Positions 4,142-22,797 of a stretch of 37,250 nt of DNA are shown here, piece by piece; position 1 is the stretch's first letter, and the number at the start of each line of letters is the position of its first letter. Both the position numbers and the translations under genes were made by a program. The notes beneath the pieces are model-generated. The model was not told where the DNA came from. It searched no databases and saw only the letters and a program-made list of their open reading frames with translations. Origin of the DNA: an uncultured Bacilli bacterium (GTDB lineage: Bacteria; Bacillota_I; Bacilli_A; RF39; UBA660); assembly GCA_947591575.1 (NCBI GenBank), contig CANQDI010000002.1, positions 1-37,250 on the forward strand, in the 5' to 3' direction.

Positions 4142-6346
4142 CTACATTGATTTCCTTTCTGCAATTTCCACCATTTTTGCTCGATTTAATCTAGTATCAC
4201 CGTGAACTCTTGAATAAGAAAGGTAACCATTCATACGATCGATTTTAGTAAGATCAGCACTGCCACATTTTGGACAAACATCCATATCCAATTCTTCATG
4301 TCCACAGACATTGCAGTAAGAAAGGGATAAATTAACACCTTCATAAAATCCTTTTTCCATTGCACGTTCTACATAAGTAATCATTGCTTCTTTATTATAA
4401 TTTAAATTGTAGCGAACATATTGAATTCTTCCACCACGGAATAGATCCCAAAATCTTCCTTCCAAGTCTTGTTTTTGAATACCAGTAATATCCTCCCAAA
4501 CGCCACAGTGAAAACTATTAGAAACATATTCTCTGTCAGAAACACCTTTTACAATACCATATTTTTTCCTAAATTGTTCTACTTGAGTACCACAAAGGCT
4601 TTCAGCTGGCGTACCATAAATAGCATAAAGAATTCCATCTTCTTTTTTGTAATCTTGGATCTTTTTATTAATATATTTCATTACTTCTAAGGCAAATTCT
4701 CCATCTTCAACAAGACTTTTTCCATTATAAAGTTCTTGCAATTCATTAAGAGCCGTAATTCCAAAAGAAGCAGTAGAAGATTTTAACAATGGTTCAATTG
4801 GTTCATTTGGTTTTAAGTGTCCTCCATAGAATCCACCTTCACAATAAGCGAGTGGACTAATAGATGCTTTTTTCTTTGCTAAATAATGGTAAGTACGAAT
4901 ATGAATTTTACGAATCATTTCAAGATAATAATCTAATACTTCATAAAAATCTTTCTGTTCCTCTCTTGCTTTTGCTAAAATCATAGGTAAATTAAGGGAA
5001 ACAGCTCCAATATTAAATCTTCCAATAAATACAGGTTTATCATCTTCATCAGCTGGTTCCATTCCTCCACGTTCAAACCATGGTGACAAGAAAGCACGGC
5101 ATCCCATAGGGCTGACAATTTTTCCATACTTTTTAAACATTTCAGGGACATATCCTTCTCCTGTTAAAGATAAATAGTCTGGATACATTGTTTTGGCACT
5201 ACAATCAAGTGCTGTATCAAATAAATGATACATTTTCTTTCCACGGCCATGAAGATTTTTATCATAAAGAAATACAAGTTTTGGAAACAACGTTGGTTTT
5301 CTAAATCCTGGTTTCCCTTGTCCTTTCATATGGGTATTTAAAATCACTTCAGAGATCATCTGCCCAAAAGGATCTTCTTCATGTCCAAAAGTGAAGGTTA
5401 CAAATGGATAATCGCCCCTACTTGAACCTACACTATTTAATTTATATTCAATTCCTTGGTATCCTTGTTCACATTCACGACGTGTTTTCTTCCAAGCATA
5501 CTCTTCTGCTTTTGTAGGTTCCTCGCCACCAGTAATTTTCATATACTCTTCATAATACTTATTATAACTTTTCTTAGCATAAGGTGTTAAAATCGTATCT
5601 ACTTCAGGAACAGTGAAACCTCCATACTGCATGGCAGCTGTATTAATAATGACATCTCCCATTACATCATAAGCTGTATCAAGACTTTTGGGTTCATTAT
5701 ACCAAAGATTTCCCATTTCAAATCCATCTTTCATCACTGAACCAACGTCGCATAAGCAACAGTTCATTGTATCACGTCTTGCACTCATATCGTGTACATA
5801 GATATATCCATCCTCACAAGCTTCCACTTCAACTTTTGTAAGAAAGAATTTTTTATAAAGTTCTTTATTTAAATTGCCATAAACTAAACTACGTTGTGTT
5901 GATACAAGAGCACTATCTGTATTAGAGTTTTCTTTATCTCCTATATAACTAATTGCCTGTGCTTTTTTATAAACATTATCCAAAATATGAACAAAATCAT
6001 TTTTATAATTACGGTATTCACGATAACTCTTCGCAACAAGCGGATTTACTTGTTCAAGAGCTGCCTCTACACAATTATGAATTTGATTAACCTCCGCATC
6101 ACTCGTTTGATTTTTTAATAAATCAATAACAATGTTTACAACCTCTTCTTTTGCTTCCTGTGTTAAATCAACCATTACTCGCTCAGCACTTTTCTCAATC
6201 GCAGCTTGAATTTTCTCACCATCAAATGGTTGCCTTGTCCCATTCTTCTTAATAATATTAATTTTGGGATTATTATACTTCTTTTTTGGTCTTCCTCTTT
6301 CTATTGTCTTTTCTTCCTTTTTCTCCTTCACATTTGTCTTTGTCAT
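4142..6346 (-). CDS. nrdD: Anaerobic ribonucleoside-triphosphate reductase (class III)
   Basis: 734 aa. N-terminal ATP-cone (IKKNGTRQPFDGEKIQAAIEKS). NCCL and MGCRAFL active-site Cys motifs. C-terminal Zn ribbon (CNVCGHE...CPKCGS). Glycyl-radical motif RMNGYL. Confidence 0.95.
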   Translation of the reverse strand: MTKTNVKEKKEEKTIERGRPKKKYNNPKINIIKKNGTRQPFDGEKIQAAIEKSAERVMVDLTQEAKEEVVNIVIDLLKNQTSDAEVNQIHNCVEAALEQVNPLVAKSYREYRNYKNDFVHILDNVYKKAQAISYIGDKENSNTDSALVSTQRSLVYGNLNKELYKKFFLTKVEVEACEDGYIYVHDMSARRDTMNCCLCDVGSVMKDGFEMGNLWYNEPKSLDTAYDVMGDVIINTAAMQYGGFTVPEVDTILTPYAKKSYNKYYEEYMKITGGEEPTKAEEYAWKKTRRECEQGYQGIEYKLNSVGSSRGDYPFVTFTFGHEEDPFGQMISEVILNTHMKGQGKPGFRKPTLFPKLVFLYDKNLHGRGKKMYHLFDTALDCSAKTMYPDYLSLTGEGYVPEMFKKYGKIVSPMGCRAFLSPWFERGGMEPADEDDKPVFIGRFNIGAVSLNLPMILAKAREEQKDFYEVLDYYLEMIRKIHIRTYHYLAKKKASISPLAYCEGGFYGGHLKPNEPIEPLLKSSTASFGITALNELQELYNGKSLVEDGEFALEVMKYINKKIQDYKKEDGILYAIYGTPAESLCGTQVEQFRKKYGIVKGVSDREYVSNSFHCGVWEDITGIQKQDLEGRFWDLFRGGRIQYVRYNLNYNKEAMITYVERAMEKGFYEGVNLSLSYCNVCGHEELDMDVCPKCGSADLTKIDRMNGYLSYSRVHGDTRLNRAKMVEIAERKSM

Positions 6347-6599
6347 TTTTTAACACCTCTCTCTATTTTTGTGATATTCCAATCATATCTTGTTTTTTTG
6401 TTATTTATTCTACTTTTTACTATTTGTAAACTTTTTTATTTGTTTGGTTTACACTAAAAAGAAGACAAAAAAAACATATGGCTAAAAGAAGAAGAAAAAT
6501 GCTTCTTTTTCCTTATTTTTCAGTCGCTTTTGCTACTACAAAGTGCCATTTTTAAAAATGTTTTTTTTGAGAACTTTTTTGTGTATTATATTTATATTA

Positions 6600-6628
6600 T
6601 TGATTTTTCAATGTTTTTAAAGTATAAT
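6600..6628 (+). promoter_or_regulatory. Sigma-A-type promoter for the NrdD-like paralog
   Basis: TTGATT (6600-6605), a 17 nt spacer, then TATAAT (6623-6628). AGGAGG at 6642-6647 lies 9 nt before the TTG start. Confidence 0.6.
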
Positions 6629-6656
6629 AAAAGAAGAAACAAGGAGGTGTCAATCA

Positions 6657-8744
6657 TTGGAAAAAATGACATTATTTGACACTCTAATCGTTGTGAAGAG
6701 AAGTGGACAACGAACAACCTTTCAAGGTGAAAAAATTGCTATTGCAATTAAAAAGGCCTTTGATAGTGTTGAAAACAACTATAAAGAGGAAGATGCCAAT
6801 AAGGTATATGAAGCTGTTTTAAAAACCATTGAAAAAGAATATATAGATCGTAAAACCATCCAAATTGAAGATATCCAAGATCTTATTGAAATGACACTAC
6901 AGAAAAAAAATTATCAAGATGTTTTTTTGTCATTTAAAACTTATCGTGAACATCGCAATGCTTCTCGAAAAAGTTTTATTACAAAGCAACAACACAAATT
7001 TTTAAAAACAATCGAGACATTAGGATTTAATAAAGAAGAAGAAAATGCTCTATTAAAAAGGAAAAGTCCCAGTCAACTACTAGAAAATTATGGAACAACA
7101 ATTGCATCTGGTTTTACAAAATCTTACTTATTAGATACAAAAATTGTAAGAGCAATTGATAGCGGACTGATTGGCATTTCTCATCTAGAATCCATTGCTT
7201 TAGGAAGTATTGAAAGTATTGAGTTAGATGTAAGTAGACTCTTTAAAGAAAAAATTCTATTAACAACAAAACAAGACTACCTCGTTCAAAATATTGACGA
7301 CTTTTTTGATAGCTTACTTCTTTTAATAAAATCTTGTGCTCACTCTGTTTATGGACAAATACAAATTTCTAACCTAGATTATGATATCGTTCCTTATATT
7401 CTTACTACTTATAAAGAATGTCTACAAGAAGAAATCAATGATTTTTTAGAATTTAGTGGATTTAAAATGTTTCTTAGTGGTGATAGAATAAAAAAGGAAA
7501 TTGATCGCTTAGGAAGTATAAAGGAAAACATTACTTTACTAGATGAACTTTGTTCACAAGAAGAATTATTAGAAATTTCTTTCAAAAGAGCCATACAACT
7601 TGCCAAAGAAAAAACAAATAAGAGGATCCATAAGAGTCTTACTCGATTCCTTATAAACTTAAATTCTATTTATGATAAACTAGAAAACTTTCCTAAAATA
7701 AGCATAGGAATGGGTACTGCTACTCAAGAAGAGGCAAAAATTTTTATGCAAATTTTATTAGAAATTGCAAAACAAGAAGACTATTTGGAACCAACTTATG
7801 TTTTTAAATTAAAGAAAGGAAAAAATATTGAAGAAAATGATCCAAATTATCATTTATTAGAATCTTATCTTCACCTTGCCATTAAAAGTAAAAAATTTTT
7901 ATTTGCCAATTTGGAAGCTAAACAAAATAGAAAATATTATGAGGAAGGTGTTCCGAATAGTGAAATTTGTTATTTTAGCGATGGAAGTAGAGTTGTCGAA
8001 GATTCTACAATACAAGATGCAAGGATTATGGGAGGTAAAGGAAATTTATTTACCTGCTCTATTAATTTACCTCGATTGGGATTTAAAGTGAAAGATATGA
8101 AGAACAAAGAAGAAGCTTTCTTTTCACTCCTTCAACAATCCTTAGAACTCGCAAAAGATACTTTACTATCCTCTTTTGAATTACTTACCAACAAAAAATG
8201 TGAGGAGTTTCCATTTTTATTAGGCCAAAACATTTGGCAAGATGGAAGAAATGTGAAAGAAACAGACCGATTAAGGAAATTATTTAAACATGGTACATTG
8301 TCTATTCATTTTGTAGGTCTCGAGGAATCTTTATCTCTTTTAACGCAAGAGGAAGATAGCTTAAAAAAGGAAAAATTAGGAACCAAAATACTTGAGTTCA
8401 TGCAAGAAAAAGTGATGTCATACTGCATTTTACATAATCTAAACTTTACTTTATCTGCTAAAAAAGATGATTACATTTGTAAAGAATTTAATCAAATTGA
8501 TACAGCTATTTATGGTAAAAACAAAGGAATTACTACAAAAGATGCATACCACAATGGATTTGAAAAAGATGTATTAAGCTGGAAAGAAACATTAGAGATA
8601 GAAGCTAAATATCACTCTTATACGTGGGGTGGACACCTCAGTTGTTTTTCTCTTTCCAAAAAAGATATATCTCAAATAAAAGCAATCTTAAATGACATAG
8701 AAAAAGAAGCTATTGGTGCTTTCTACTTGGAAGCAAAACATTAG
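6657..8744 (+). CDS. ATP-cone plus NrdD-like barrel paralog lacking the Zn-ribbon/glycyl-radical domain
   Basis: 695 aa with a TTG start. ATP-cone is VVKRSGQRTTFQGEKIAIAIKKAF. It is collinear with the adjacent NrdD: NIDDFFDSLLLLIKSCAHSVYGQIQISNLDYDIVPYILTTYKE aligns with SLDTAYDVMGDVIINTAAMQYGGFTVPEVDTILTPYAKKSY, GKGNLFTCSINLPRLG with GRFNIGAVSLNLPMIL, and GTLSIHFVGLEES with STASFGITALNEL. The protein ends exactly where the NrdD Zn ribbon begins. Confidence 0.8.
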   Translation: MEKMTLFDTLIVVKRSGQRTTFQGEKIAIAIKKAFDSVENNYKEEDANKVYEAVLKTIEKEYIDRKTIQIEDIQDLIEMTLQKKNYQDVFLSFKTYREHRNASRKSFITKQQHKFLKTIETLGFNKEEENALLKRKSPSQLLENYGTTIASGFTKSYLLDTKIVRAIDSGLIGISHLESIALGSIESIELDVSRLFKEKILLTTKQDYLVQNIDDFFDSLLLLIKSCAHSVYGQIQISNLDYDIVPYILTTYKECLQEEINDFLEFSGFKMFLSGDRIKKEIDRLGSIKENITLLDELCSQEELLEISFKRAIQLAKEKTNKRIHKSLTRFLINLNSIYDKLENFPKISIGMGTATQEEAKIFMQILLEIAKQEDYLEPTYVFKLKKGKNIEENDPNYHLLESYLHLAIKSKKFLFANLEAKQNRKYYEEGVPNSEICYFSDGSRVVEDSTIQDARIMGGKGNLFTCSINLPRLGFKVKDMKNKEEAFFSLLQQSLELAKDTLLSSFELLTNKKCEEFPFLLGQNIWQDGRNVKETDRLRKLFKHGTLSIHFVGLEESLSLLTQEEDSLKKEKLGTKILEFMQEKVMSYCILHNLNFTLSAKKDDYICKEFNQIDTAIYGKNKGITTKDAYHNGFEKDVLSWKETLEIEAKYHSYTWGGHLSCFSLSKKDISQIKAILNDIEKEAIGAFYLEAKH

Positions 8745-8751
8745 CTTCTTT

Positions 8752-9999
8752 TTATATTTTCTCCTTTTGCACTTTTTTTCGTAGTTTTTTTCGAATGACA
8801 AAGCGATAAATACGAACCAATTTTAAAAAGAAAAAGGTAAAAATCGGTCTTATAATATAATCAAATTCCCCGATAAATTCTAAATACTCTCCTCCAAACT
8901 TTTTCTTAAACTCATGAAGTCCTACTAAAGGATGATCACTTTTGGGTTCTCCAATGGTTCCAAATTCATCAAAAACAGAGGAACCTTTTTCTTTTGAAAT
9001 TTCAATTTGATAATCAAATAAGCGATAGTTCGCATAAGTCATTTTATAGTCCATATCATTTGCTCCATATAAATACCAACTTTTATCACCATAATGCACT
9101 GTAAAATAACTACTGACAACAATCTTATCTTCTTTTCTTTTCTTCTTTTCTTCTTCTAAAAACGAAAGTTCTTTTTGTTTTTTTTCTAAAGAGATAAGAT
9201 TGATTTCTTTCGCAGATTTTTCCTTTTGAATATCTTCTTTTAAAATGGCAATCATTTTAGAAAGAGAAACTTTTGCCAACAATAAAGATACATGATTAGA
9301 AGCTGAAAAGATATCATAAAATTTCTCATAATAATCATCTGGATGAGAAAAGAAATTTTGTCTTTGTTCGGTCAGCTTCATAAGGCGGATAAATTGAGGA
9401 ATATCCTCCTTGGTTCCAATAGAAGGTTCTACTTCAAAATGTTCTGCCTTTTTTATAAAACGTAGGGCTGTTTTAGAGTAACGTTTTCGTATATCTTCTA
9501 TTTCATTTTTTAAATCAATACGAAATGTATAACGAGGTTGAGACGTTTCAAAATATTTGGTAAGAGGTAAATGCTTATATCCTATCTTCTTAAGAAAAGA
9601 AACTAATTGATAATGATTTTCCCCTTCGATACACGTTGCATCTTCTGAAATGGTATGGAGACGAATATCAGGATCAATTTTAAAATAAAGCCCTTTCTGC
9701 TTTTTCACAAACTTTTTTAAAGAAGTTGTAAAAAAAGATAAGCATTCTAAATTTTGATAATCCATGACAAATCCCCTAGGAATATAAAAATAGCAATATC
9801 CAAATGGCAGCGACTTTTTTAAAAGAAGTGCGGTAGCAATCAACGTTTCATTTTCTTTTACACCAACATAAAAAGGTGTATATCCCCTTGATTTTGAAAG
9901 TTCTCCCCATAAAGGAGAAGCAAGGAAATGAGATTTTGTAGGATGATTTTCTACAAAGGATGAAAATTCTTCTAAGTCAACTTGTTCTATAAATTTCAT
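8752..9999 (-). CDS. FemAB-family aminoacyl-tRNA-dependent peptidoglycan peptidyltransferase
   Basis: 415 aa counted from the ATG at 9999 (the ORF-track GTG at 10011 abuts the RBS). Resembles S. aureus FemA along its length (YFYIPRGFVMDY, LYFKIDPDI, central coiled-coil insert, C-terminal FKKKFGGEYLEFIGEFDYI). Confidence 0.85.
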   Translation of the reverse strand: MKFIEQVDLEEFSSFVENHPTKSHFLASPLWGELSKSRGYTPFYVGVKENETLIATALLLKKSLPFGYCYFYIPRGFVMDYQNLECLSFFTTSLKKFVKKQKGLYFKIDPDIRLHTISEDATCIEGENHYQLVSFLKKIGYKHLPLTKYFETSQPRYTFRIDLKNEIEDIRKRYSKTALRFIKKAEHFEVEPSIGTKEDIPQFIRLMKLTEQRQNFFSHPDDYYEKFYDIFSASNHVSLLLAKVSLSKMIAILKEDIQKEKSAKEINLISLEKKQKELSFLEEEKKKRKEDKIVVSSYFTVHYGDKSWYLYGANDMDYKMTYANYRLFDYQIEISKEKGSSVFDEFGTIGEPKSDHPLVGLHEFKKKFGGEYLEFIGEFDYIIRPIFTFFFLKLVRIYRFVIRKKLRKKVQKEKI

Positions 10000-10028
10000 A
10001 TTCTTATACACTTCCTTTGATTATTGTT

Positions 10029-10117: not shown

Positions 10118-10147
10118 AAAAATAGATAGAATAAAGAGGTGACTTTT

Positions 10148-11437
10148 ATGCTTGTTGAATTAAAAAAGATAGAATTTGATACATTTGCATCTACCCATAT
10201 TCATAATAGCTTTCAGCAAAATTCTTATTGGGCAAAATTCATGGAAGGAGATGGATGGCATAGTTATTTTGTAGGATATAAGGATAACAATCAAATCATT
10301 GCTGCCACTTTGCTTCTTTCAAAAAATACCCCTCTTCTTAAAAAACGGTATTTTTATGCCCCTCGTGGTTTTCTAATCGATTATAATAATACAGAGCTTG
10401 TTCAATCCTTTACAAAAGACGTCGTACAATTTGTCAAACAAAAAAAAGGAATTTATTTAAAAATAGATCCTTATATACCTTGGGTAGAGCGAAATAAAGA
10501 CGGAGAATTAATAGAAGGAGGAAAAGATAATAGCCGTATTGTCAATATGTTAGAAAAAATAGGATTTGTTCATGTTGGCAATGATTTTAAAAGGAATATG
10601 GTGCAACCTCGTTGGTTATATGCAATTGATACAAGAGGAAAAACCATCGAAGATTTAGAAAGTGAAATGCATGATAAAACAAGACAGATCATTCATAGAA
10701 ATGAGCGAGAAGGAATTGCATTTCGTTTTCTTGAAGAGGAAGAGATACCACAATTTGTAGATATCATGAAAGAAACCAGTGATAAATATCATACGCTTGA
10801 ATATACAAAGCAATATTATGAAGATTTTATGCATTGTTTTCCAAAAGAAAATATTAAAATGGCAGTAGTTGAACTTCATCCAAAAGAAGCCATTCAAAAT
10901 ATCGAAAATCAATTAAAAGAACTAAAACAAAGTTATTATGATCGGGCATTTAAAAAAGAAGAAGTGCTCCACATGAATGAATCTACTTTTGAAAAGAAAG
11001 AAAGAGAACAAGAAGAAATGATTGCACGATTAGAAGAAAAACAAAAAAACTATGAAGATATTTTACAAGAAAAAGGAGAAAAGATTCTATTAGGTGGTTA
11101 TTTTATCATTCTATATGGAAATGAAGTCATTGCTCTACACGGAGGTATTTATGAAGAATGGAAAAAACTAGATGCTGCCGTAACCTTACATTATGAGATG
11201 TTAAAGTATACCAAAGAACATCATTATGAACTATATAATTTATATGAAATATCAGGAGATTTTCGAGAAAATAGTCCTATGTATGGAAGCTTTTTATTCA
11301 AAAGAAACTTTGGAGGAGAAGTCGTTGAATTAATTGGTGAATTTGATTACATCATTGATTTAACTGCCTATTCTTTTCTTAAATACTTCTTTCCATCCTA
11401 TTATGGAATTAAAGTCATTCGAAAAGAAAAAGTATAA
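10148..11437 (+). CDS. FemAB-family aminoacyl-tRNA-dependent peptidoglycan peptidyltransferase (second paralog)
   Basis: 429 aa counted from the ATG at 10148 (GAGGTG RBS at 10136-10141). Motifs YFYAPRGFLIDY, IYLKIDPYI, a coiled-coil insert, and FKRNFGGEVVELIGEFDYI. Confidence 0.85.
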   Translation: MLVELKKIEFDTFASTHIHNSFQQNSYWAKFMEGDGWHSYFVGYKDNNQIIAATLLLSKNTPLLKKRYFYAPRGFLIDYNNTELVQSFTKDVVQFVKQKKGIYLKIDPYIPWVERNKDGELIEGGKDNSRIVNMLEKIGFVHVGNDFKRNMVQPRWLYAIDTRGKTIEDLESEMHDKTRQIIHRNEREGIAFRFLEEEEIPQFVDIMKETSDKYHTLEYTKQYYEDFMHCFPKENIKMAVVELHPKEAIQNIENQLKELKQSYYDRAFKKEEVLHMNESTFEKKEREQEEMIARLEEKQKNYEDILQEKGEKILLGGYFIILYGNEVIALHGGIYEEWKKLDAAVTLHYEMLKYTKEHHYELYNLYEISGDFRENSPMYGSFLFKRNFGGEVVELIGEFDYIIDLTAYSFLKYFFPSYYGIKVIRKEKV

Positions 11438-11699: not shown

Positions 11700-14516
11700 T
11701 TACTTTACAACAATATTACAGATTCTTCCTTTAATTAAAATAATTTTCACAATCTGTTTTCCTTCAATATGTCTTTTCACATTTTCTTCTTGTAAAGCTT
11801 TTTCTTCGATCTGACGTTCTGTATCTTCTAGATGAACTTTAATTGTAGCTCGAACTTTACCATTGACCTGTACAGCAATTTCTTTTTCCTCTTCTACTAA
11901 ATACTTTTCATCATATTGAGGCCATTTTTGATAAGCGATTGTCTCATTATGACCCAATATTTGCCACATTTCTTCCCCTACATGAGGAATGATACAACTA
12001 ATCATTTTGATAAACCCTTCTGCATATTCTCTTGGGCAATGACCTATACGGTAACATTCATTCACAAAAATCATCATTTGACTAATAGCTGTATTAAAAC
12101 CTAAATTCTCATAGTCATCTGTTACCTTCTTAACAGTTTGATGATATATTTTGGTAAGATGACCATCATTATCATCTACAATATGATCTACATTTGTAAA
12201 AAACCTCCATACACGTTCGATAAATCGTTTGGCTCCTTCTACTCCACTAGCACTCCAAGGTTTAGAGGCTTCAATTGGACCCATAAACATTTCATAAAGA
12301 CGCAAGGTGTCTGCACCATAATCTCGCGCAATATCTTTAGGATCAATAGCATATTCTGGGTATCTCTTTCCCATTTTAATACCGTTTTCACCTAAAATCA
12401 TTCCTTGGTGAACCAACTTTTTAAATGGTTCTTTTACAGGAGATAATCCTTTATCATATAAATAACGATTCCAAATACGAGCGTACATTAAATGCCCAAC
12501 TGCGTGTTCTGGTCCTCCCATGTAAAGATCTACTGGAAGCCAATGTTTAGCAAGTTCTGGATCACAAAACATTGTTTCATTTTTAGGATCAATATAACGG
12601 AAATAATACCAACTAGATCCAGCACTTCCAGGCATTGTTGAAGTTTCCCTAAACCCTTTTCTACCATCTTTTGTAGTATATTTTTTCCATTCCGTTGCAT
12701 TTTCAAGTGGTGCTTTTCCATTATGTCCCTTATAGTCCTCCAATTCTGGTAAGATAAGAGGTAACTCTTCATCTTCTAAAACATAGTCTTCTCCATCTTC
12801 TAGATGAACGATTGGAACAGGTTCACCCCAATATCTCTGGCGAGCAAAAATCCATTCTCTAAATTTATAATTGACCTTACGACTTCCACAATGATGTTCT
12901 TCAAGCCACTTAATCATCGTATCAATTGCTTCCTGCTTATTCATCCCGTTTAAAAATTCTGAATTGATATGAACTCCATCTCCAACCATAGCACCAGGAT
13001 GCTTAGCATATTGATATGTTTTATTGTGCAAAGGATCTTTTATTTCTTCTAGTGTTTTCTCATCCACCCACTCAATCGTAAACTCTTCATCATCTTCTAA
13101 TTCTTTTTCATCTTGAATTTCATCCTTTAAATAGAATAAAAATCCTGTACTCTCAATATGAAAATATTTATCCTTATTATAAGCATAATAGTGGTGATTA
13201 ATTTTTGGAAGTTCTGCTTCTAAGGTTAAATGTACATATCCTGTTTCTTCCTTAATCTCGCGAAGTGCACAAGAAAGGGCATCTTCCTTCTCTTTTCTTG
13301 TTCCGCCAATAAATAAACGTCCCCCTTTATCATGCCAATTCAGTGTTAAATATTTTTTTGTTTTTGGATTATAAACAACAGCAACAATCGATTGTTTTTC
13401 AAATTCATTTTCATGAGGTGTTCCTGTTACTTCTTCTAAAACTTGAATAATTGGAATATTAAATTTCTTGGCAAACTCATAGTCTCTTTCATCATGAGCA
13501 GGTACTGCCATAATGGCTCCTGTTCCATAACTTGCTAAAACATAATCACTAATATAAATAGGGATTTCTTGTTGATTAACAGGATTAATGGCATAAGCTC
13601 CTGTAAAGACCCCTGTTTTTTCTTTATTGAGTTCTGTTCGTTCTAAATCACTTTTAGAAGCACAAATGGCTTGGTATTTTTTGACTTCTTCTTTATGCTC
13701 TTCACTTGTAATCAAATTCACATATTCATGTTCTGGAGCAAGCACACAATAAGTTGCACCAAAAAGCGTGTCACAACGTGTTGTGAAAACGGTAAATTCT
13801 TTATCATAGCCTTTTATTTGAAAAGTTACATGTGCACCAATTGATTTTCCAATCCAATTTCGTTGCATTTCTTTAGTTGATTCTGGCCAATCAATTTCAT
13901 CTAAACCTTCCAATAATTTTTCAGCAAAAGCAGGTTGATCAATACAAAGCTGTTTCATATTTTTACGAACAACTGGATACCCACCACGTTCTGATTTTCC
14001 ATCAATTACTTCATCATTAGAAAGAACTGTTCCTAGTTTTTCACACCAATTGACAGGCATATCTATATATTTTGCATAACCATCTTCATAAAGTCTTTTG
14101 AATATCCATTGAGTCCAGTGATAATAGGTAGGATCACTTGTAGATACCATTTTATCCCAATCATAATCAAATCCTAATGTATTTAATTGTTCACTAAAAT
14201 AAGCAATATTCTTTTCTGTAAATCCATTGGGATGATTTCCTGTTTGTACTGCATATTGTTCTGCTGGAAGACCAAATGAATCATATCCCATAGGATGAAG
14301 GACATTATAACCTTGCATTCTTTTCATACGAGAAACAATATCTGTTGCCGTATACCCTTCTACATGTCCTGCATGAAGACCTACTCCACTTGGATAAGGA
14401 AACATATCTAAAACATAATATTTTGGCTTACTAAAATCCCAAACATCTGTCTTAAAAGTTTGATGCTCTTTCCAATATTTTTGCCATTTTTTTTCAATTT
14501 CTCTAAATGGATACAT
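11700..14516 (-). CDS. leuS: Leucyl-tRNA synthetase carrying an internal Nudix-domain insertion
   Basis: 938 aa. HIGH motif is HAGH. CP1 editing-domain motifs are [12 protein letters not shown] and [19 protein letters not shown]. The KMSKS-equivalent is KMGKR (12363-12377). About 130 residues longer than typical bacterial LeuRS because of an insert at about aa 366-508. Confidence 0.95.
12993..13421 (-). other. Nudix hydrolase domain nested within LeuRS (about aa 366-508)
   Basis: [24 protein letters not shown] (nt 13304-13236) fits the Nudix box G-x5-E-x7-R-E-U-x-E-E-x-G-U at every position. The flanking beta-strand-like segments ([34 protein letters not shown]) are consistent with a full Nudix fold. 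Confidence 0.8.
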
Positions 14517-14862
14517 TTTTTCTCTTTCCTTTCTTTTGATATATTTTTCCTACAAAGTGATAACTCACTAAAATAATAGGAAGTGTAAGACATATTCCCA
14601 GTAAAAGCTCCAATAAAAAGCTTTTTGCAAAAACTATTATAGTAACAATAATGGCAATGTCAAAAGAACTGACAAAACTAATAACATTGAGTAATTGCTT
14701 ATAGGGAAGCTTTTTGATATCTAGTTGATAACGTGCCTCTAAATAACGTACTTCAACTGGCTTCTTTTTGGAATTACCTTTTTTCTCTTTTCGAACAACA
14801 AAAAGTTCGTAAATGCCAAAGACGAGAAGAAAAGTTAAAATAAATAAATAGACTTCTTGCAT
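14503..14862 (-). CDS. Small integral membrane protein (about 3 TM), first gene of the T-box-controlled leuS operon
   Basis: 119 aa counted from the ATG at 14862. AGGAGG (14873-14868) lies 5 nt upstream. Hydrophobic segments are [43 protein letters not shown] and [19 protein letters not shown], with a basic tail. The stop overlaps the leuS ATG by 14 nt. Confidence 0.65.
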
Positions 14863-14870
14863 CAATACCT

Positions 14871-15073
14871 CCTAAAACAAAAGATTCTATGTATAAGAAC
14901 GAACAAAGTCCGCGGTACCATCTTATTTCATAGAATCTATGCAATCTTTTTTTGATAACGGAAAACCCGAAATGCATCTATGAAATCAAGTTCACAACAT
15001 CTCTTTCTCTATTTTCACCACCCATAGAGTCTCTTTAAAAGATATCATTTGTTACTACTATTTCACTGCATTT
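14871..15073 (-). promoter_or_regulatory. T-box riboswitch leader, leucine specifier (CUU)
   Basis: Read on the minus strand. Stem I base is AAATGCA/TGCATTT. AGAGA bulge. Distal helix is CTCTAT/ATAGAG with loop GGGTGGTGAAA. Specifier loop is GAA-CUU-G (codon at 14990-14988). T-box sequence is AAGATGGTACCGCGG (14924-14910). A hairpin plus TTTGTTTT tract follows (14938-14871). Confidence 0.85.
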
Positions 15074-15088
15074 ATAAAATGTAGTTTT

Positions 15089-15117
15089 AGTATACGCAAG
15101 TTTTTTTCTTTTTTCAA
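15089..15117 (-). promoter_or_regulatory. Sigma-A-type promoter for the T-box leader
   Basis: On the minus strand: TTGAAA (15117-15112), a 17 nt spacer, then TATACT (15094-15089). Confidence 0.6.
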
Positions 15118-15157
15118 GTGTTTTATCCAATTCCTTAGTAATTTCCCTCAAAAAAAT

Positions 15158-16582
15158 TTAATATTGAACTCCCCATACAACATGATATTTAGCTTCTTTA
15201 CCACAGACAACACAATGTGTATCAATTTTTTCGCCATCTTCTAAAATACACCGTGATTTTGTTCCTTTAATTTCTTTCATTCTATTTTCACATGCTTCAT
15301 CGCCACACCACATAGCATGAATAAATCCTGGTTGTTTTTCCATTTGAATCTTAACTTCTTCTAAATTATGACAAGTAAAAGTAAAACTATCTCTTCTTTC
15401 TTTTGCTCTAAAAAACATTTCTTTTTGCATGCGATCAAGGATTTGTGTTACAACTTCCCCTATGTTTTCCTCGAAAGAAACAACTTGCTTTTCTCTTGTA
15501 TCTCGCCTTGTTACGATTATTTTATGATCTTCTAAATCACGTTTACCTATTTCAATACGAAGTGGTATCCCATTCACTTCTGCTTCTGCAAACTTGAATC
15601 CTGCCGATTTTTCACTTTGATCTATATCTACAGTTATTCCAGCATCTTCTAATATTTTCTTTACTTCTTCTGATTTTTTTTGTACATTTTCTGACATTTG
15701 AATTGGTACAATAACAACTTGTGTTGGCGCAATTTTAGGAGGTAATACCAATCCATTATCATCACTATGTACCATGATCATAGCACCAATCATACGAGTT
15801 GTTGAACCCCAAGAAGTTTGATAACAATATGAAAGAGCATTATTGCGATCCTTAAAAGAAATATCATAAGCCTTTGCAAATTTCTGTCCAAAGTAATGTG
15901 AAGTAGCAGATTGCAAAGAAATACCATTATACATCAGTGCTTCTACCGTTAAAGTATATTCTGCTCCTGCAAATTTTTCCTTTTCTGTCTTTTTACCTGT
16001 AATGACAGGAATAGCTAAATATTCTTCAAAAAATTGACGATAAATATCTAACATTTTATGAGTTTCTTCCTCTGCTTCCTCCCGAGTTTCATGAATTGTG
16101 TGTCCTTCTTGCCATAAAAATTCACGACTTCGAAGAAAAGGCCTTGTTTCCTTTTCCCAGCGCATTACACTGCACCATTGATTATATTTTAATGGAAGAT
16201 CTCGATAAGATTTTACGACATGACTATAGTAATCACTAAATAACGTTTCACTAGTAGGACGAATGCATAAACGCTCATCTAACTCTTTATCTCCTCCTTG
16301 GGTAACCCAAGCTACTTCTGGAGCAAAACCATTAATTAACTCTCCCTCTTTTTTCATGAGACTTTCTGGAATTAAAAGAGGCATGTATACATTTTGATGT
16401 CCCGTTTCTTTAAACATTTTATCCATCGTCTTTTGGATCATTTCCCATAAAGCATATCCTCTTGGTTCAAAAACAATACATCCTTTCACGTTTGAATAAT
16501 CTGCAAGATGAGCTGCTTTTACAACGTCAGTATACCATTTTGCAAAATCAACTTCCCTTGAAGTAATTGCTTTATTTTTCAT
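15158..16582 (-). CDS. proS: Prolyl-tRNA synthetase, archaeal/eukaryote-like type (no INS editing domain)
   Basis: 474 aa. Class II core. C-terminal Zn-binding domain (CGDEACE...HCVVCGK) ending in the conserved terminal Tyr (VWGVQY). Confidence 0.93.
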   Translation of the reverse strand: MKNKAITSREVDFAKWYTDVVKAAHLADYSNVKGCIVFEPRGYALWEMIQKTMDKMFKETGHQNVYMPLLIPESLMKKEGELINGFAPEVAWVTQGGDKELDERLCIRPTSETLFSDYYSHVVKSYRDLPLKYNQWCSVMRWEKETRPFLRSREFLWQEGHTIHETREEAEEETHKMLDIYRQFFEEYLAIPVITGKKTEKEKFAGAEYTLTVEALMYNGISLQSATSHYFGQKFAKAYDISFKDRNNALSYCYQTSWGSTTRMIGAMIMVHSDDNGLVLPPKIAPTQVVIVPIQMSENVQKKSEEVKKILEDAGITVDIDQSEKSAGFKFAEAEVNGIPLRIEIGKRDLEDHKIIVTRRDTREKQVVSFEENIGEVVTQILDRMQKEMFFRAKERRDSFTFTCHNLEEVKIQMEKQPGFIHAMWCGDEACENRMKEIKGTKSRCILEDGEKIDTHCVVCGKEAKYHVVWGVQY

Positions 16583-16668: not shown

Positions 16669-16700
16669 TAAAAGAAAAAGAAGCCTATGAAAGCTTCTTT
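16669..16700 (-). terminator. Intrinsic terminator after rplQ
   Basis: On the minus strand: AAAGAAGC, an 8 nt loop that contains the rplQ TAG stop, GCTTCTTT, then TTCTTTT. Confidence 0.6.
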
Positions 16701-17047
16701 CCTTCTTGTACTAATCTTAAGACAACCATTAAAGCATCGTCTCCACGACGTTCTTGTAATTTTAAAATTTGTGTATAACCACCATCACGCTCTGCATAAC
16801 GAGGTGCTAATTCATTAAATACTTTATTCACTACTTCTTTATCATTGTGAACGAATGCTAAGGCTCTACGACGTGCTCCAAGACTTCCATCTTTTCCATA
16901 GGTAATCATTTTATCTACAAATTTACGAACCTCTTTAGCACGTGTTTCTGTCGTTTCAATACTTTCATTCATAATGACTTGTTTTGTAAGAGTTGCTAAC
17001 ATACTTCTTCTATGTTTGTTATCAACTCCAAGCTTTCTATATGCCAT
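16685..17047 (-). CDS. rplQ: 50S ribosomal protein L17
   Basis: 120 aa, [17 protein letters not shown]. Last gene of the alpha operon, following rpoA. Confidence 0.97.
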
Positions 17048-17060
17048 TTTATACCTCCTT

Positions 17061-18011
17061 CTAATCGTCTTCTCTTAGGACAAGTCCTAATTCTCTAATT
17101 TTATCAAGGACTTCTTTCAATGATTTCTTTCCTAAGTTGCGAATCTTCATCATATCATTTTCACTCTTATTAACCAAATCTTGAAGGGTATGGATACCAG
17201 CTCTTTTCAAACAGTTATATGCACGAACAGAAAAATCTAAGTCTTCAATAGAAGTTTCCAATGCCTTTACCTTTGGATCTTCTGTTTTTTCAATCATCAT
17301 ACCACTTACATCAGCAATTGTACTTAAATTGGTCAATAATGAGAAATGCTCGATTAAGATACGAGAAGCAAGCGCCATTGCTTCTTCTGGTTTAATAGAA
17401 CCATTTGTAGTAACTTCCATAATTAATTTATCGTAGTTTTCATTTTGTCCAACACGTGCTGGCTCTACTGCATAAGAAACAAGTTCAATAGGTGAATAAG
17501 ATGTATCCATAGCAATGACCCCTACCTTTTTATTATCTAATAAGCGCTTATTTTCTTCACTTCTTACATAACCACGGCCATTGGTAACAGTCATTTCCAT
17601 ATCAAGTTTTCCACCTTTAGCAAGTGTTGCGATTACATGATCTTTATTGATGATTTCAACATCTGCATCAGTTTCAATATCTCCTGCTGTTACAACACCC
17701 TCTTTAGAAGCTGATAAACGAATCGTTTTTGCTTCCTCGGCATGATTCTTAATAACAACACCTTTTAAATTTAAGATGATGGTTGTAACATCTTCTATAA
17801 CACCATCAAGTGTTTGAAATTCATGAAGAGCTCCTTCAATTTTAACACTTGAGATGGCACTACCAGGAAGAGAAGAGAGCATCACACGACGAAGTGCATT
17901 TCCAAGTGTAATACCAAATCCTCTTTCTAGTGGTTCTAATTCAAATTTTCCATAAAAATTATTTTCTACATAATCTGTAATTTTATAAACTGGTTTTTCA
18001 AATTGTAACAT
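17061..18011 (-). CDS. rpoA: DNA-directed RNA polymerase alpha subunit
   Basis: 316 aa. N-terminal domain ([15 protein letters not shown]) and C-terminal domain ([19 protein letters not shown]). Confidence 0.97.
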
Positions 18012-18033
18012 GAAACTAACCTCCCTTTATGAA

Positions 18034-18417
18034 TTACCCTCTTGGGCGTTTTGGTGGACGACATCCATTATGTGGAATTGGAGTAACATCATTAATTGCT
18101 GTTACTTCAAGTCCAGCTGTCTGTAAAGATCTAATTGCTGTTTCACGTCCAGGTCCTAATCCTTTAACAAATACTTCTACTTTACGCATACCAAGATCAA
18201 ATGCTGCTTTTCCTGCACTTTCAGCAGCCATTCCTGCAGCAAATGGAGTAGATTTTTTACTACCTTTAAATCCAATTGCACCACTGGAAGCCCAGCTAAT
18301 TGTATTTCCTTCTTTATCTGTAATAGTCGTGATTGTATTGTTAAATGTAGAATGGATATGTGCAATACCTTCAGGTACGTTCTTTTTCACTTTTCTTTTT
18401 CTTGTTTTATAAGCCAT
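18034..18417 (-). CDS. rpsK: 30S ribosomal protein S11
   Basis: 127 aa, [18 protein letters not shown]. Confidence 0.97.
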
Positions 18418-18436
18418 ACTTTAACCTCCTTCTCGA

Positions 18437-18805
18437 CTAAACTTTCTTCTTATTTGCAACGACTTTTCCGCGACCCTTACGAGTACGAGCGTTACGATTT
18501 GTTCTTTGGCCTCTTACAGGTAGCCCTCTTTTATGACGAGTTCCTTGATAAGAATTAATTTCCATTTTTGTCTTGATATTCATACTTACTTCACGGCGTA
18601 AATCACCTTCTGTAAGATATTTCCCTACTTCATCACGAAGACGAACCTGTTCTTCTTGAGTAAGTTCTCCAGCTTTCTTTTCTGGATCTACTTTTGCATC
18701 ACGACAAATAGTTTTTGCTAAACTACGTCCAATTCCATGAATACTTGTAAGTGCAATACAAGTATGTTTTTCATTTGGAATATCTACACCTTTAATTCGT
18801 GCCAC
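18437..18805 (-). CDS. rpsM: 30S ribosomal protein S13
   Basis: 122 aa, [10 protein letters not shown]...GIGRSLA. Confidence 0.97.
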
Positions 18806-18820
18806 TTTCTATACCTCCCT

Positions 18821-18934
18821 TTAACCTTGTCTTTGTTTGTGTTTTGGATTTTCACAAATAATACGGATTGTACCTTTTCTTTTAATTATCTTGCATTTTT
18901 CACAAATTGGTTTTACGCTTGATCTTACTTTCAT
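18821..18934 (-). CDS. rpmJ: 50S ribosomal protein L36 (not in the ORF track)
   Basis: Hand translation gives [37 protein letters not shown] (37 aa), with a CxxC...C...H Zn motif. Lies between infA and rpsM, as expected. Confidence 0.95.
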
Positions 18935-18948
18935 ATTTTATCTTCCTT

Positions 18949-19164
18949 TCATTTACGATAGGTAATACGCCCACGTGTTAAGTCGTATGGAGATAATTCT
19001 ATCATGACCGTATCACCTGGTAGAATGCGAATGTAATTCATTCGTATTTTACCAGAAACGTGAGCTTCTACAATGTGTTTGTTTTCTAATTCTACTTTAA
19101 ATTTTCCACCTGGAATAATTTCAAGTACTTTTCCTTCTACTTCAATCACATCATCTTTAGCCAT
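18949..19164 (-). CDS. infA: Translation initiation factor IF-1
   Basis: 71 aa, [13 protein letters not shown]...GRITYRK. Ends in a TGA stop. Confidence 0.97.
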
Positions 19165-19168
19165 CTTT

Positions 19169-19918
19169 TCACTCTCCTGTTAGTATTTCGCATCCATCAT
19201 CCGTAACAACAACAGTATGTTCAAAATGAGCAGATGCTTGATTGTCATCTGTAATAACTGTCCAGTCATTATTACTATCAATATAAATATCTGGACTTCC
19301 TAAAGTCAACATTGGTTCTACGGCAATAACCATTCCCTTACGAAGACGAGGACCTGTATTACTTTTCCCATAATTTGGAACATCCGGATCTTCATGAACA
19401 TTTGTCCCAACACCATGTCCTACTAATTCTTTGACAACACCTAGATGATAATTTAAAGCATACTTTTCGATCGCTTCACCAATATCACCAATATGACCAT
19501 CTTTATGAATAGCTTTAAGTCCTTCATACAAAGCTTGTTCTGTGTGTTCAAGAAGTGCTTTCTTTTCTTTATTGATTTCTCCTACTGGATAAGTCCATGC
19601 TGAATCACCATGATAGCCTTGATAACAAGCACCAATATCAATTGATACAATGTCACCATTTTGTAATTGATAATCACTTGGAATTCCATGAACTACTTCT
19701 TCATTTACACTGATACATAAAGCACAGGGAAAACCTTCATACCCTTTAAAAGAAGGCGTTGCTCCTTGACTTCGAATAAACTCTTCTCCTAACCGATCCA
19801 ACTCACGAGTTGTAATGCCTTCTCGAATAAAGGGTTTCAAATATTGATGAGTATCATACACAATTTTTCCAGCTTTTCGAAGAAGAGCAATTTCACGATC
19901 ACTTTTAATCGTTATCAT
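19169..19918 (-). CDS. map: Methionine aminopeptidase type I
   Basis: 249 aa counted from [17 protein letters not shown], with a GGAGGG RBS 6 nt upstream. Metal-ligand context is [25 protein letters not shown] and HFEHTV. The longer ORF-track start is an over-extension into adk. Confidence 0.93.
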
Positions 19919-20573
19919 AGTATCCCTCCAAAACCATTGCAATTCTTTTGAATACTTCTTCAATAGAAAGATTTCCATCAATCTGATATAAGATATGCTT
20001 ATTCTTATAGTATTCTAAAAGAGGCCCTGTTTTTTCAAGATAAACTTGATAACGATTTTGAAATGACTCTAAATTATCATCATTTCTTTGATAAAGATTA
20101 CCGCCACAAAGATCACAAGTTGATTCAATTTCTGGAAGCTCACTTGGAACATTAATGTTATAAATAGCTCCACAATCTTCACAGACACGTCTTCCTGTAA
20201 TTCTTTTTGCAAGTAATTTTTCATCAATTTCTAACGATATCACATATCCAAGTTCTTGTCCCAAACGCTTTAATATTTCATCATACTTCTTGGCTTGTTC
20301 CACATTTCTTGGAAAGCCATCTAGAATATATCCATTTTGACAATCTTTTTCATGTAATCTTTTTTCAAGTAAAGTGTACATAATATCATCTTTGACAAGA
20401 CCTCCACTTGAAATAGTTTCTAATACATATTCACCTATTTCACTATCTTCTTTCATCACTTCTCGTAAAATATCACCTGTTGAAATGTGTGGAATATGAT
20501 ATTTTTCTGAAACAAGATTGGATTGTGTTCCTTTCCCCGCAGCCGGGGGTGCTATAAATATGATATTTTTCAT
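19905..20573 (-). CDS. adk: Adenylate kinase (Zn-lid type)
   Basis: 222 aa. P-loop APPAAGKGTQ. Lid CEDCG...CDLCGG. Confidence 0.95.
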   Translation of the reverse strand: MKNIIFIAPPAAGKGTQSNLVSEKYHIPHISTGDILREVMKEDSEIGEYVLETISSGGLVKDDIMYTLLEKRLHEKDCQNGYILDGFPRNVEQAKKYDEILKRLGQELGYVISLEIDEKLLAKRITGRRVCEDCGAIYNINVPSELPEIESTCDLCGGNLYQRNDDNLESFQNRYQVYLEKTGPLLEYYKNKHILYQIDGNLSIEEVFKRIAMVLEGYYDND

Positions 20574-21835: not shown

Positions 21836-21836
21836 C

Positions 21837-22786: not shown

Positions 22787-22797
22787 AATACCCTCCT

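Follow-up and report, generated by a model that had tools for sequence, protein, structure and literature searches.

A predicted Nudix hydrolase module nested in the CP1 editing domain of leucyl-tRNA synthetase from uncultured gut Bacilli

Bacterial aminoacyl-tRNA synthetases (aaRSs) are among the best-studied enzymes, which makes a second enzyme nested inside one of them a matter of interest. Such a case is raised by leuS in the window, a 37,250-nt stretch of DNA from an uncultured Bacilli bacterium, where a first-pass annotation made from the sequence had claimed a complete Nudix hydrolase domain within leucyl-tRNA synthetase (LeuRS). We asked whether this domain is genuine and maintained, where in LeuRS it sits, and on what it might act.

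A Nudix module in place of a CP1 surface loop

The 938-aa leuS product scored 987.6 bits against the NCBIfam model leuS_bact (TIGR00396, cut-off 548.4), in three stretches that are split by the insert, and aligned end to end with Thermus thermophilus LeuRS (1h3n) in three blocks (669 bits). It is homologous over its whole length to canonical bacterial LeuRS (1H3N/2BYT; E. coli 4AQ7/4ARC; TIGR00396), with which it has in common the class Ia core, a CP1 domain with the Thr-rich and AHD motifs, the anticodon-binding domain and the C-terminal domain. The signatures HAGH, TTRCDT, AHD and KMGKR were all located (Table 1), in line with the earlier impression that the remainder of LeuRS is functional. 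Nevertheless, the protein departs from the canonical form at several points: the KMSKS loop reads KMGKR, the cysteines of the first zinc knuckle of T. thermophilus LeuRS are substituted (CEKLG...KSERGG), and about 70 residues of 1h3n (580-651), presumably the leucine-specific domain, have no counterpart. The locus of one insert-less orthologue (L088) is syntenic with the window, which suggests that this leuS is the resident copy.

In the alignment with the closest insert-less relative (P0047), 147 residues replace 7, and the flanks are 87-89% identical. Likewise, residues 5-367 aligned to 7-368 of 1h3n and residues 513-709 to 380-579, so that about 145 residues replace an 11-residue loop; this CP1 loop of T. 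thermophilus LeuRS (residues 368-380) thus stands against the 147-residue Nudix insert of the window protein. Judged from these alignments, the Nudix module occupies the place of a surface loop of 7-13 residues inside the CP1 editing domain, the part of LeuRS that takes up the acceptor end of tRNA(Leu). The insert had originally been placed between the end of CP1 and the return to the catalytic core, and this placement had to be revised. The Pfam LeuRS editing-domain model PF13603 matched aa 219-371 with model positions 1-151 of 185 (211.5 bits), i.e. the insert interrupts the editing domain near position 151/185, and the return segment forms the end of CP1. The 10-residue conserved segment quoted for this return was confirmed by translation at aa 512-521. 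From the initial borders of the feature (12993-13421, aa 366-508) the end at 12993 was kept, while the other was extended to 13433, giving aa 362-508.

Table 1. Features of the leuS locus in window coordinates.
Feature	Residues (aa)	Position	Strand	Basis
leuS CDS, bacterial-type LeuRS with nested Nudix module	938 in total	11700..14516	(-)	ORF list, TIGR00396, 1h3n alignment
HIGH signature HAGH, synthetic site	48-51	14364..14375	(-)	translation
CP1 editing domain, part N-terminal to insert	219-361	13434..13862	(-)	Pfam PF13603; 89% identity to insert-less P0047
Thr-rich editing motif TTRCDT	245-250	13767..13784	(-)	translation; (nearly) invariant in 71 species-level orthologues
Editing-site AHD, conserved Asp342	340-342	13491..13499	(-)	translation; surrounding 12-residue segment invariant in 71 orthologues
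Nested type-A Nudix module with both linkers	362-508	12993..13433	(-)	alignments with insert-less P0047 and 1h3n
Pfam NUDIX PF00293 match	376-495	13032..13391	(-)	43.3 bits in whole protein, 45.9 bits on excised segment, cut-off 21.1
Nudix box G405-x5-E411-x7-R419-E420-I-x-E423-E424-x-G426-Y427	405-427	13236..13304	(-)	strict pattern match
HHYY, 14-17 residues past box	441-444	13185..13196	(-)	H441, H442 and Y443 invariant
CP1 return segment C-terminal to insert	509-548	12873..12992	(-)	87% identity to P0047 residues 369-420; matches T. thermophilus LeuRS from residue 380 on
KMSKS-type loop KMGKR	714-718	12363..12377	(-)	translation; variant of KMSKS
Small membrane-protein ORF, upstream partner outside the Nudix feature	120 in total	14503..14865	(-)	overlaps leuS start by 14 nt

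The proposal of a complete Nudix domain within leuS was borne out by each line of analysis. The Pfam NUDIX model PF00293 was matched with an E-value of 7e-12 and its cut-off was exceeded both in the whole protein and when the insert was scanned as an excised segment. The Nudix box conforms to the strict pattern, including the REx2EE glutamates, and across 71 orthologues the glycine columns of the box (G405 and G426) and E411, E420, E423 and E424 are invariant, R419 being kept in at least 90%. A whole Nudix fold, suspected beforehand from the strands on both sides of the box, was recovered by AlphaFold2 and Foldseek alike: the model of aa 361-513 (pLDDT 91.3, pTM 0.85) has a predicted full Nudix alpha/beta/alpha fold, in which helix 53-65 spans the REx2EE portion of the box. 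A Foldseek search with this model gave 445 PDB hits at E <= 0.001, those listed all being Nudix proteins, with the best TM values (0.74-0.77) to Nudix structures and 2azw, a protein of no known function, as top match. HMM score, box and predicted fold agree in placing the module in the Nudix superfamily (PF00293). Furthermore, a model of CP1 together with the module (346 aa; pLDDT 89.3, pTM 0.83), in which the junction blocks reached 87-92, suggests that the Nudix module is rigidly mounted on CP1. Judged from its sequence, the leuS product is a two-enzyme protein consisting of a bacterial LeuRS that is complete by its signatures and a folded Nudix module with a full catalytic box.

Distribution, conservation and exchange of the module

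Among the GTDB species representatives, 301 contain relatives of the Nudix module. Of the top 80 loci, about 74 encode full-length LeuRS+Nudix proteins as 935-951-aa ORFs with the same insert in uncultured gut Bacilli, the hosts of which include humans, chickens, rabbits, mice and ruminants, and LeuRS segments were present in 80 of the best 150 representatives of 50%-identity clusters. Database labels for these proteins stop at 'leucine--tRNA ligase' or 'class I tRNA ligase family protein', and annotation pipelines conceal the Nudix insert behind the name of the synthetase. The earlier statement that no LeuRS with an embedded Nudix domain has been described stands with regard to the literature, a search of incomplete coverage having found no published description, but not as a statement about rarity: the architecture is common, yet unstudied. 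We are aware of no earlier account of a second catalytic domain within the CP1 proofreading domain. IleRS with a GNAT domain (NCBIfam NF040702, 'ileS_w_GNAT') is likewise a class Ia aaRS, equipped with an additional enzyme domain that modifies small molecules. It differs in the synthetase and in its GNAT passenger, and NCBI has a curated exception model for it, whereas no comparable NCBIfam exception model matched LeuRS+Nudix.

Across 71 species, column conservation stood at 0.78 in the Nudix part, compared with 0.73-0.82 in the backbone, and dN/dS values were in the range of 0.07-0.2, with dS saturated. By these measures the Nudix part is conserved like the synthetase, and purifying selection maintains the module across a broad group of related uncultured gut Bacilli. 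The insert shows no anomaly in GC content, and its borders lack direct or inverted repeats of any note. We are highly confident that leuS contains a real, catalytically competent Nudix domain that is under selection and nested in a working LeuRS.

Furthermore, the CP1 site is variable in its content. The relationships of the insert states were taken from a neighbour-joining tree, in which insert-less LeuRS of 798-800 aa (alleles at 85% identity) is nested within the clade. The same CP1 site alternatively holds no insert, a type-A module, a type-B module (29% identical to A) or a B+A tandem, and members of this Nudix family are nested at several sites around CP1, in one to three copies. On this comparative evidence, the module behaves as an exchangeable cassette that LeuRS as such does not need, since close relatives do without it; its loss or absence in these relatives also argues against a core function. 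Origin of the insert-less alleles by simple deletion was considered and fits poorly, as these alleles carry the canonical GGD/NI..EAYT loop. Sliding-window nucleotide identity revealed no recombination breakpoint.

Free-standing CP1*-Nudix proteins and other hosts

Proteins of 276-284 aa that combine a CP1-like domain with the Nudix module (CP1*-Nudix) are encoded just upstream of leuS in three loci (L001, L003 and L086), where the adjacent leuS backbone is foreign (41-46% identical). Of 14 such free-standing proteins, 13 have the strict Nudix box. None of the 14 has kept the Thr-rich editing motif, and the Asp of AHD is changed to Asn or absent in all except P0148. Since the box persists where the editing motifs are lost, Nudix activity appears to be what selection retains in these split proteins. 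AlaX, YbaK/ProX and ThrRS-ed are free-standing trans-editing paralogues of aaRS editing domains. The CP1*-Nudix proteins are likewise free-standing copies of an aaRS editing domain, but CP1* is devoid of the catalytic editing motifs (the Thr-rich motif is missing, AHD has become HN, and GTG is deleted) and carries an intact Nudix. Free-standing CP1-like proteins thus exist, although to our knowledge such CP1 homologues were not previously described. A stand-alone Nudix (P0018) that might have represented the ancestor was rejected: it is a piece of a leuS that is riddled with frameshifts, from an assembly of poor quality, and LeuRS-domain fragments flank it in its locus (L089).

Related Nudix domains also occur in hosts other than LeuRS. 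One is nested in an IleRS (P0251) that additionally has a histidine-phosphatase domain, and others were found in PNPase-N-half-like proteins (P0174, P0214, P0241 and P0279). At another locus (L095) the IleRS carries a histidine phosphatase, and Nudix genes lie on its flanks. The domain pair of P0251 is that of mycobacterial MutT1; however, MutT1 is a stand-alone protein, whereas the pair in P0251 is inserted in a synthetase, and the window LeuRS has the Nudix only. Four free-standing relatives, a small sample, had mixed neighbourhoods: two of the genes adjoin class I aaRS genes (valS in L092; argS and ileS in L095), whereas the other two have no aaRS gene next to them. A single Nudix family seems to have moved repeatedly into RNA-3'-end-binding enzymes (LeuRS, IleRS, PNPase-like), mostly in reduced-genome lineages such as CPR.

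A profile search for host architectures, limited by its word index, returned mostly free-standing proteins. The free-standing relatives that had a source name in this search were from Ca. Paceibacterota. The source labels of free-standing relatives read 'MutT'. As a separate observation, one protein (P0016), encoded on a 1.5-kb contig, combines Nudix with ZT_dimer.

Candidate substrates and alternative functions

The module and its family members scored 13-36 bits against NCBIfam Nudix-family models with cut-offs of 98-154. NudB (NF006961) was the best match of the module, at 27.7 bits far from its cut-off of 103. The same holds for the RppH/NudH models NF001938 (12.9 bits, cut-off 116) and TIGR02705 (23.7 bits, cut-off 154.4) and for the MutT 8-oxo-dGTPase model TIGR00586 (14 bits, cut-off 97.9). 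The best NCBIfam matches of the family members, all weak, were the RppH models PRK00714 and TIGR02705, and a PDB sequence search with the module gave matches only at E >= 0.007. In the structural comparison, the Foldseek top 50 included many entries of E. coli RppH (TM 0.63-0.68), Msm MutT1 and Mtb Rv2985 (the latter deposited under the name diadenosine polyphosphatase), as well as human Ap4A hydrolase and Tth Ndx1, NudB and MutT1 were both among the structural matches, and the ranking was nearly flat over Nudix subfamilies. The tyrosine cluster that had been noticed downstream of the box was placed at HHYY. Counted from Y427, its Y443 and Y444 correspond to an aromatic pair 16-17 residues past the box across the wider family; we take an aromatic residue (Tyr) about 16-18 positions after the box to be a marker of ApnA hydrolases that alone does not define the subgroup.

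With E. coli RppH/NudH and the Ap4A hydrolases (NUDT2, Ndx1, Rv2985, MutT1) the module shares fold and box (TM 0.61-0.68), but it differs from them in its low identity (13-23%), in HMM scores far under the cut-offs and in being nested instead of free-standing. Sequence and model together suggest, weakly, that the RppH/ApnA-hydrolase group contains its nearest known enzymes, and an RppH/ApnA-type substrate class can be assigned tentatively at best.

The explanation that we favour overall, with moderate confidence, is that of a bifunctional LeuRS with an inherited, exchangeable Nudix hydrolase, possibly of RppH/ApnA-type substrate. The module would be an active Mg2+-dependent hydrolase of a pyrophosphate linkage, fixed on CP1 where the acceptor end of tRNA(Leu) is received. 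Because its closest resemblance is to NudH/RppH and ApnA hydrolases, its substrate may be a dinucleoside polyphosphate (e.g. Ap4A) or an RNA end that bears a polyphosphate or a nucleotide cap. Ap4A is a by-product of aaRSs; its clearance, however, would predict fusion to the aaRSs that make most Ap4A, at any convenient site, and the observed hosts differ from this. CP1 of LeuRS and IleRS and the PNPase-like proteins fit a role at RNA 3' ends better than a role on free nucleotides. Together with the weak resemblance to RppH and ApnA hydrolases, these hosts narrow slightly the range of putative roles listed in the first-pass annotation. Action of the Nudix on tRNA(Leu) or on by-products of the synthetase would constitute a new quality-control or immunity layer in translation.

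A role at the 3' end might also consist in repair: the module could be a de-blocking enzyme that removes a pyrophosphate-linked block from A76 of tRNA, for instance the 3'-pyrophosphate added by the toxSAS FaRel2/CapRel, a function that we regard as unlikely. No Nudix enzyme is known to us that acts at the 3' terminus of RNA. In the free-standing CP1*-Nudix proteins, the binding residues for A76 and the aminoacyl group are gone. On the other hand, all hosts in which the Nudix is not free-standing bind RNA 3' termini, be it LeuRS (80 of 150, in or next to CP1), the IleRS P0251 or the PNPase-N-half-like proteins. The pairing of Nudix and phosphatase in P0251 and L095 would suit a conversion from 3'-PP via 3'-P to 3'-OH, although the window LeuRS has no phosphatase partner domain. 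Moreover, patchy presence and absence, type swaps and duplication resemble accessory or defence functions, while a pattern scan of viral contigs, of limited sensitivity, found no relatives. FaRel2 of the gut Bacillota Coprobacillus pyrophosphorylates the tRNA CCA end and stops aminoacylation, and this block is enzymatically reversible, namely by SAH hydrolases (bioRxiv 10.1101/2021.04.30.441581). The same study does not mention Nudix, and the connection to toxSAS is purely conceptual. If true, a de-blocking Nudix would make the tRNA chargeable again and would amount to built-in immunity of the synthetase and to a chemically new kind of 'editing' in an aaRS, and the A/B/0 cassette polymorphism would mirror an arms race. 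In its widest form, this unlikely reading would make the Nudix family a dedicated nested module for de-blocking or proofreading RNA 3' termini inside their binding enzymes, namely in CP1 of LeuRS and IleRS and in PNPase-like proteins.

It is rather improbable that the module is a generic house-cleaning Nudix, MutT-like and engaged in NTP/NDP sanitation or (p)ppGpp turnover, which has settled in a permissive loop of CP1 within a highly expressed essential gene and is unlinked to LeuRS or tRNA function. CP1 itself tolerates insertions, and the hosts have reduced genomes (gut Bacilli and, for most free-standing relatives, Ca. Paceibacterota). The 'MutT' labels, the structural matches to MutT1 and NudB and the two free-standing relatives not adjoining an aaRS gene would also be compatible with such an enzyme. 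However, the score against the MutT model TIGR00586 is far below its cut-off, and nesting has recurred around CP1, in one to three copies, and not at termini or in unrelated proteins. In addition, Nudix and a dead CP1 scaffold stayed at the locus after a foreign leuS had replaced the backbone, and their retention beside this gene argues for a link to LeuRS or CP1.

That the domain is non-catalytic, serving as a nucleotide-binding sensor or as a structural or docking element that modulates LeuRS and uses its box for binding only, is very unlikely. The rigid mounting predicted on CP1 would suit such an element, as would the copies without a strict box in multi-Nudix LeuRS, where this box is present in two of three Pfam stretches of P0151 and P0154 and in one of two of P0185. 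Against this, each full-length fusion has one or more strict boxes in which every metal-binding Glu is retained, and the box columns are invariant in the 71 species and in the split proteins. Finally, the low coverage of the contig (about 5x) might point to an assembly chimera, a pseudogene or a mis-called ORF, a reading of negligible probability that is excluded by the identical 938-aa protein in four ENA assemblies and by the recurrence of the uninterrupted architecture in about 74 species-level genomes that come from separate studies and various hosts, and is further opposed by purifying selection and the lack of a compositional break.

For the preferred reading, an active Nudix hydrolase mounted on the CP1 domain of LeuRS, nature provides its own controls in the form of the insert-less alleles, the A and B types, the tandems and the split gene for dead CP1 and Nudix.

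No T-box leader was detected 5' of leuS at the Rfam gathering threshold. The small membrane-protein ORF that precedes leuS in the window recurs at related loci: in 39 of them its homologue ends at most 40 nt from the start of leuS or of the CP1*-Nudix gene, with an identity of 76% in the insert-less locus L088 and about 30% in L001 and L003.

Position and authenticity of the Nudix insert

The leuS product of the window is a bacterial LeuRS: NCBIfam TIGR00396 matches it in three stretches, and the score of 987.6 bits is above the cut-off of 548.4. All motifs quoted in the first-pass annotation were present and their coordinates were verified by translation, its span 12993-13421 corresponding to aa 366-508. 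The Nudix domain it had recognised was recovered by Pfam in the whole protein (see table) and, with 45.9 bits, in the excised insert segment alone. Its placement of the insert after the CP1 editing domain had to be corrected: the insert interrupts the Pfam editing-domain model, and the presumed return segment forms the last part of this domain, so that the insert is internal to CP1 and not situated between CP1 and the catalytic core. In an alignment with T. thermophilus LeuRS (1h3n), aa 5-367 match residues 7-368 and aa 513-709 match 380-579, so that about 145 residues occupy the place of 11. P0047, the closest insert-less LeuRS (799 aa), has the seven residues GGDISKE where the window LeuRS has aa 362-508, with flanks 89% and 87% identical.

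Four ENA assemblies encode the identical 938-aa protein, each on a contig about 37 kb long. When an alignment restricted to the Nudix part was run against GTDB, with every species represented by a single genome, 301 genomes proved to encode a relative; about 74 of the best 80 loci have an uninterrupted LeuRS of 935-951 aa in which the insert occupies the same position, the remainder being three short split forms and loci cut by contig ends. In the window, GC content is unchanged across the insert and no repeats flanking it were found. Together, the identical protein in four assemblies, the recurrent architecture and the lack of GC change or repeats exclude chimeric assembly. The hosts are uncultured gut Bacilli of rabbit, chicken (Ca. 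Faecenecus, Ca. Onthocola), human, mouse and ruminants. One apparent stand-alone Nudix protein (P0018) was discarded as an artefact, a leuS-Nudix gene broken into many short ORFs (L089 4456-7173) in the low-quality assembly GCA_009741595.1.

Public labels read 'leucine--tRNA ligase', 'leucyl-tRNA synthetase' or 'class I tRNA ligase family protein'. Whereas IleRS fused to GNAT has an NCBIfam exception model, the window LeuRS matched no comparable one. An incomplete full-text literature search gave no relevant paper, in line with the first-pass annotation, which knew of no described LeuRS with an embedded Nudix domain.

Coordinates of features in the window and in related loci
Feature	Location	Strand	Details
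leuS ORF	11700-14516	minus	938 aa
LeuRS editing domain	aa 219-371	minus	Pfam, model positions 1-151 of 185
NUDIX domain	aa 376-495	minus	Pfam, 43.3 bits, cut-off 21.1
LeuRS regions differing from T. thermophilus	12378-12440, 14000-14080		aa ~155-185, ~709-730
Small membrane-protein ORF (predicted)	14503-14865	minus	120 aa, TTG start; overlaps leuS start by 14 nt
ProRS gene	15158-16582	minus	474 aa, ProRS-C_1 (PF09180)
S10-Clostridia ribosomal protein leader	30737-30835	minus	RF03136, 39.7 bits
Genes downstream of leuS	8752-10011 (-), 10139-11437 (+), 6657-8744 (+)		Pfam labels
Spore_Cse60 ORF	between 11438 and 11699		56 aa, Pfam label
CP1*-Nudix gene, L001	6001-6855		followed by leuS, 6870-9290
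CP1*-Nudix gene, L003	6001-6831		followed by leuS, 6848-9268
CP1*-Nudix gene, L086	4689-5543
Insert-less leuS (P0047)	L088 3346-5745
IleRS gene with phosphatase insert	L095 6094-9648
PNPase-like gene with nested Nudix (P0174)	L099 4967-6526

Conservation and the split form

Modelled by AlphaFold2 with 53 sequences, aa 361-513 show the Nudix strand-helix-strand order (pLDDT 91.3, pTM 0.85), bearing out the whole fold previously proposed. A further model, of aa 215-560 with CP1 and Nudix together (pLDDT 89.3, pTM 0.83; junction blocks 87-92), suggests that the module is fixed on CP1 rather than floppily tethered. Across 71 species-level orthologues, G405, E411, E420, E423, E424 and G426 of the Nudix box as well as H441, H442 and Y443 are invariant, R419 is at least 90% conserved, and the editing motifs TTRxDT and a second one of 12 residues are conserved. 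In this set the columns of the Nudix part have a mean conservation of 0.78, those of the LeuRS parts 0.73-0.82. Nudix dN/dS against the nearest relatives was 0.07-0.2 (Nei-Gojobori), a rough value because dS is saturated. The nested Nudix domain is real, widespread and selected.

In some MAGs (L001, L003, which equals L037, and L086) a gene of 276-284 aa lies between the conserved small membrane ORF and a leuS of 806 aa. Its product matches the CP1 domain boundaries exactly, with Nudix inside; the Nudix box is strict, while the Thr-rich editing motif is gone, HN replaces AHD and the GTG stretch is missing (CP1*). It is 49% identical to the window CP1 plus Nudix (63% within Nudix) and only 31-33% identical to CP1 of the adjacent LeuRS, which itself shares only 41-46% with the window LeuRS. 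These identities are most simply read as replacement of the resident leuS by a foreign one, with Nudix and its CP1 scaffold retained; selection would then act on Nudix activity and on the surrounding CP1 rather than on editing. Other clusters at 50% identity also contain short CP1*-Nudix proteins, one of them labelled Ca. Aenigmatarchaeota; we know of no description of free-standing CP1-like proteins.

Cassette-like behaviour and the wider Nudix family

In a neighbour-joining backbone tree with the insert removed, insert-less LeuRS of 798-800 aa (P0047, whose locus is syntenic with the window, P0074, P0083 and the P0144 group) branch within the Nudix-bearing clade in three places. Simple deletion does not account for these alleles, as it would not restore the canonical GGD/NI..EAYT loop that they have. 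We suspect allelic exchange by homologous recombination over the highly conserved flanks; no breakpoint was seen in nucleotide identity along leuS. A subclade of 948-949 aa (P0082, P0102) carries at the same CP1 site a different, type B Nudix with a strict box, 29% identical to the window's type A, and forms of 1102-1105 aa (P0065, P0076, P0078) have B before A and two copies of the DGVHINS junction.

Exhaustive searching of 1.8 billion cluster representatives with phmmer returned 182 matches at E <= 0.001, and 80 of the best 150 contain LeuRS segments. LeuRS contain one to three copies of the module, which can follow the CP1 core, as in the window, precede it or stand on both sides. Among divergent LeuRS that have two or three Nudix domains, placed on one or both sides of the CP1 core (P0151, P0154, P0159, P0160, P0164, P0166, P0185, P0186, P0200), some copies have degenerate boxes. 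Each full-length fusion has at least one strict box, and all except P0154 keep the editing motifs. The IleRS P0251 (1345 aa) combines a nested Nudix (aa 270-396) with a histidine-phosphatase domain (aa 665-809); another, at L095, has the phosphatase insert only, with free-standing Nudix genes on its flanks. Proteins of 424-531 aa resembling the N-terminal half of PNPase (P0174, P0214, P0241, P0279) carry the same family between the halves of the first PH domain, RNase_PH and RNase_PH_C. Free-standing relatives (150-177 aa) have an N-terminal FG.PH..E..R strand in common, and all that carry a source name come from Ca. Paceibacterota. Class I aaRS genes adjoin two of the four examined: valS at L092, argS and ileS at L095.

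Possible activity and genomic setting

The window Nudix resembles characterised Nudix enzymes only weakly: its NCBIfam scores were well under cut-off (NudB 27.7, BsRppH 23.7, MutT 14, RppH 12.9 bits), and PDB sequence matches had E >= 0.007. In the structural comparison 2azw, an uncharacterised Nudix of E. faecalis, ranked first; next came many RppH structures of E. coli, Msm MutT1, Mtb Rv2985, NudB, human Ap4A hydrolase and Tth Ndx1; RppH models were the best, weak, HMM matches of family members. An aromatic pair lies 16-17 residues beyond the box, a position we take to be an ApnA-hydrolase marker. Based on the RppH-like matches and this pair, we take the module to be most probably an active pyrophosphohydrolase held on CP1 and tentatively assign its substrates to the NudH/RppH/ApnA-hydrolase class. 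A role at the tRNA 3' end is a serious, though less likely, alternative: it would fit the enzymes that harbour the module (LeuRS and IleRS at CP1, and PNPase-like proteins), the additional phosphatase domain of IleRS and the accessory-like distribution. We know of no Nudix enzyme that reverses CCA pyrophosphorylation by toxSAS. In related gut Bacillota these toxins prevent charging by pyrophosphorylating the CCA end, a block that is enzymatically reversible (bioRxiv 10.1101/2021.04.30.441581).

Compared with T. thermophilus LeuRS, the window LeuRS has no counterpart of residues 580-651 (about 70 residues), presumably the leucine-specific domain, and is without the first zinc-knuckle cysteines (CEKLG...KSERGG); the foreign 806-aa LeuRS of L001 retains CPTC...CERCG. 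In 39 related loci the leuS start is adjoined by a homologue of the 120-aa membrane ORF, which has no Pfam family. In many Bacillota leuS is under T-box control; upstream of leuS, including window 14866-15157, no T-box or other Rfam element reached the gathering threshold. The next gene upstream of the small ORF and leuS encodes ProRS; class II core, anticodon-binding and ProRS-C_1 are the only families recorded for this protein, which we take to be of the archaeal/eukaryote-like type without the bacterial INS editing domain. The RF03136 leader precedes the S10-spc-alpha ribosomal operon, which fills most of 16685-30814. At L088, two genes absent from the window (304 and 207 aa, no Pfam family) lie at 5755-7295 between leuS and the Cse60 ORF. 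Downstream of leuS the window encodes two FemAB-family proteins and an anaerobic ribonucleotide reductase (ATP-cone and NRDD).
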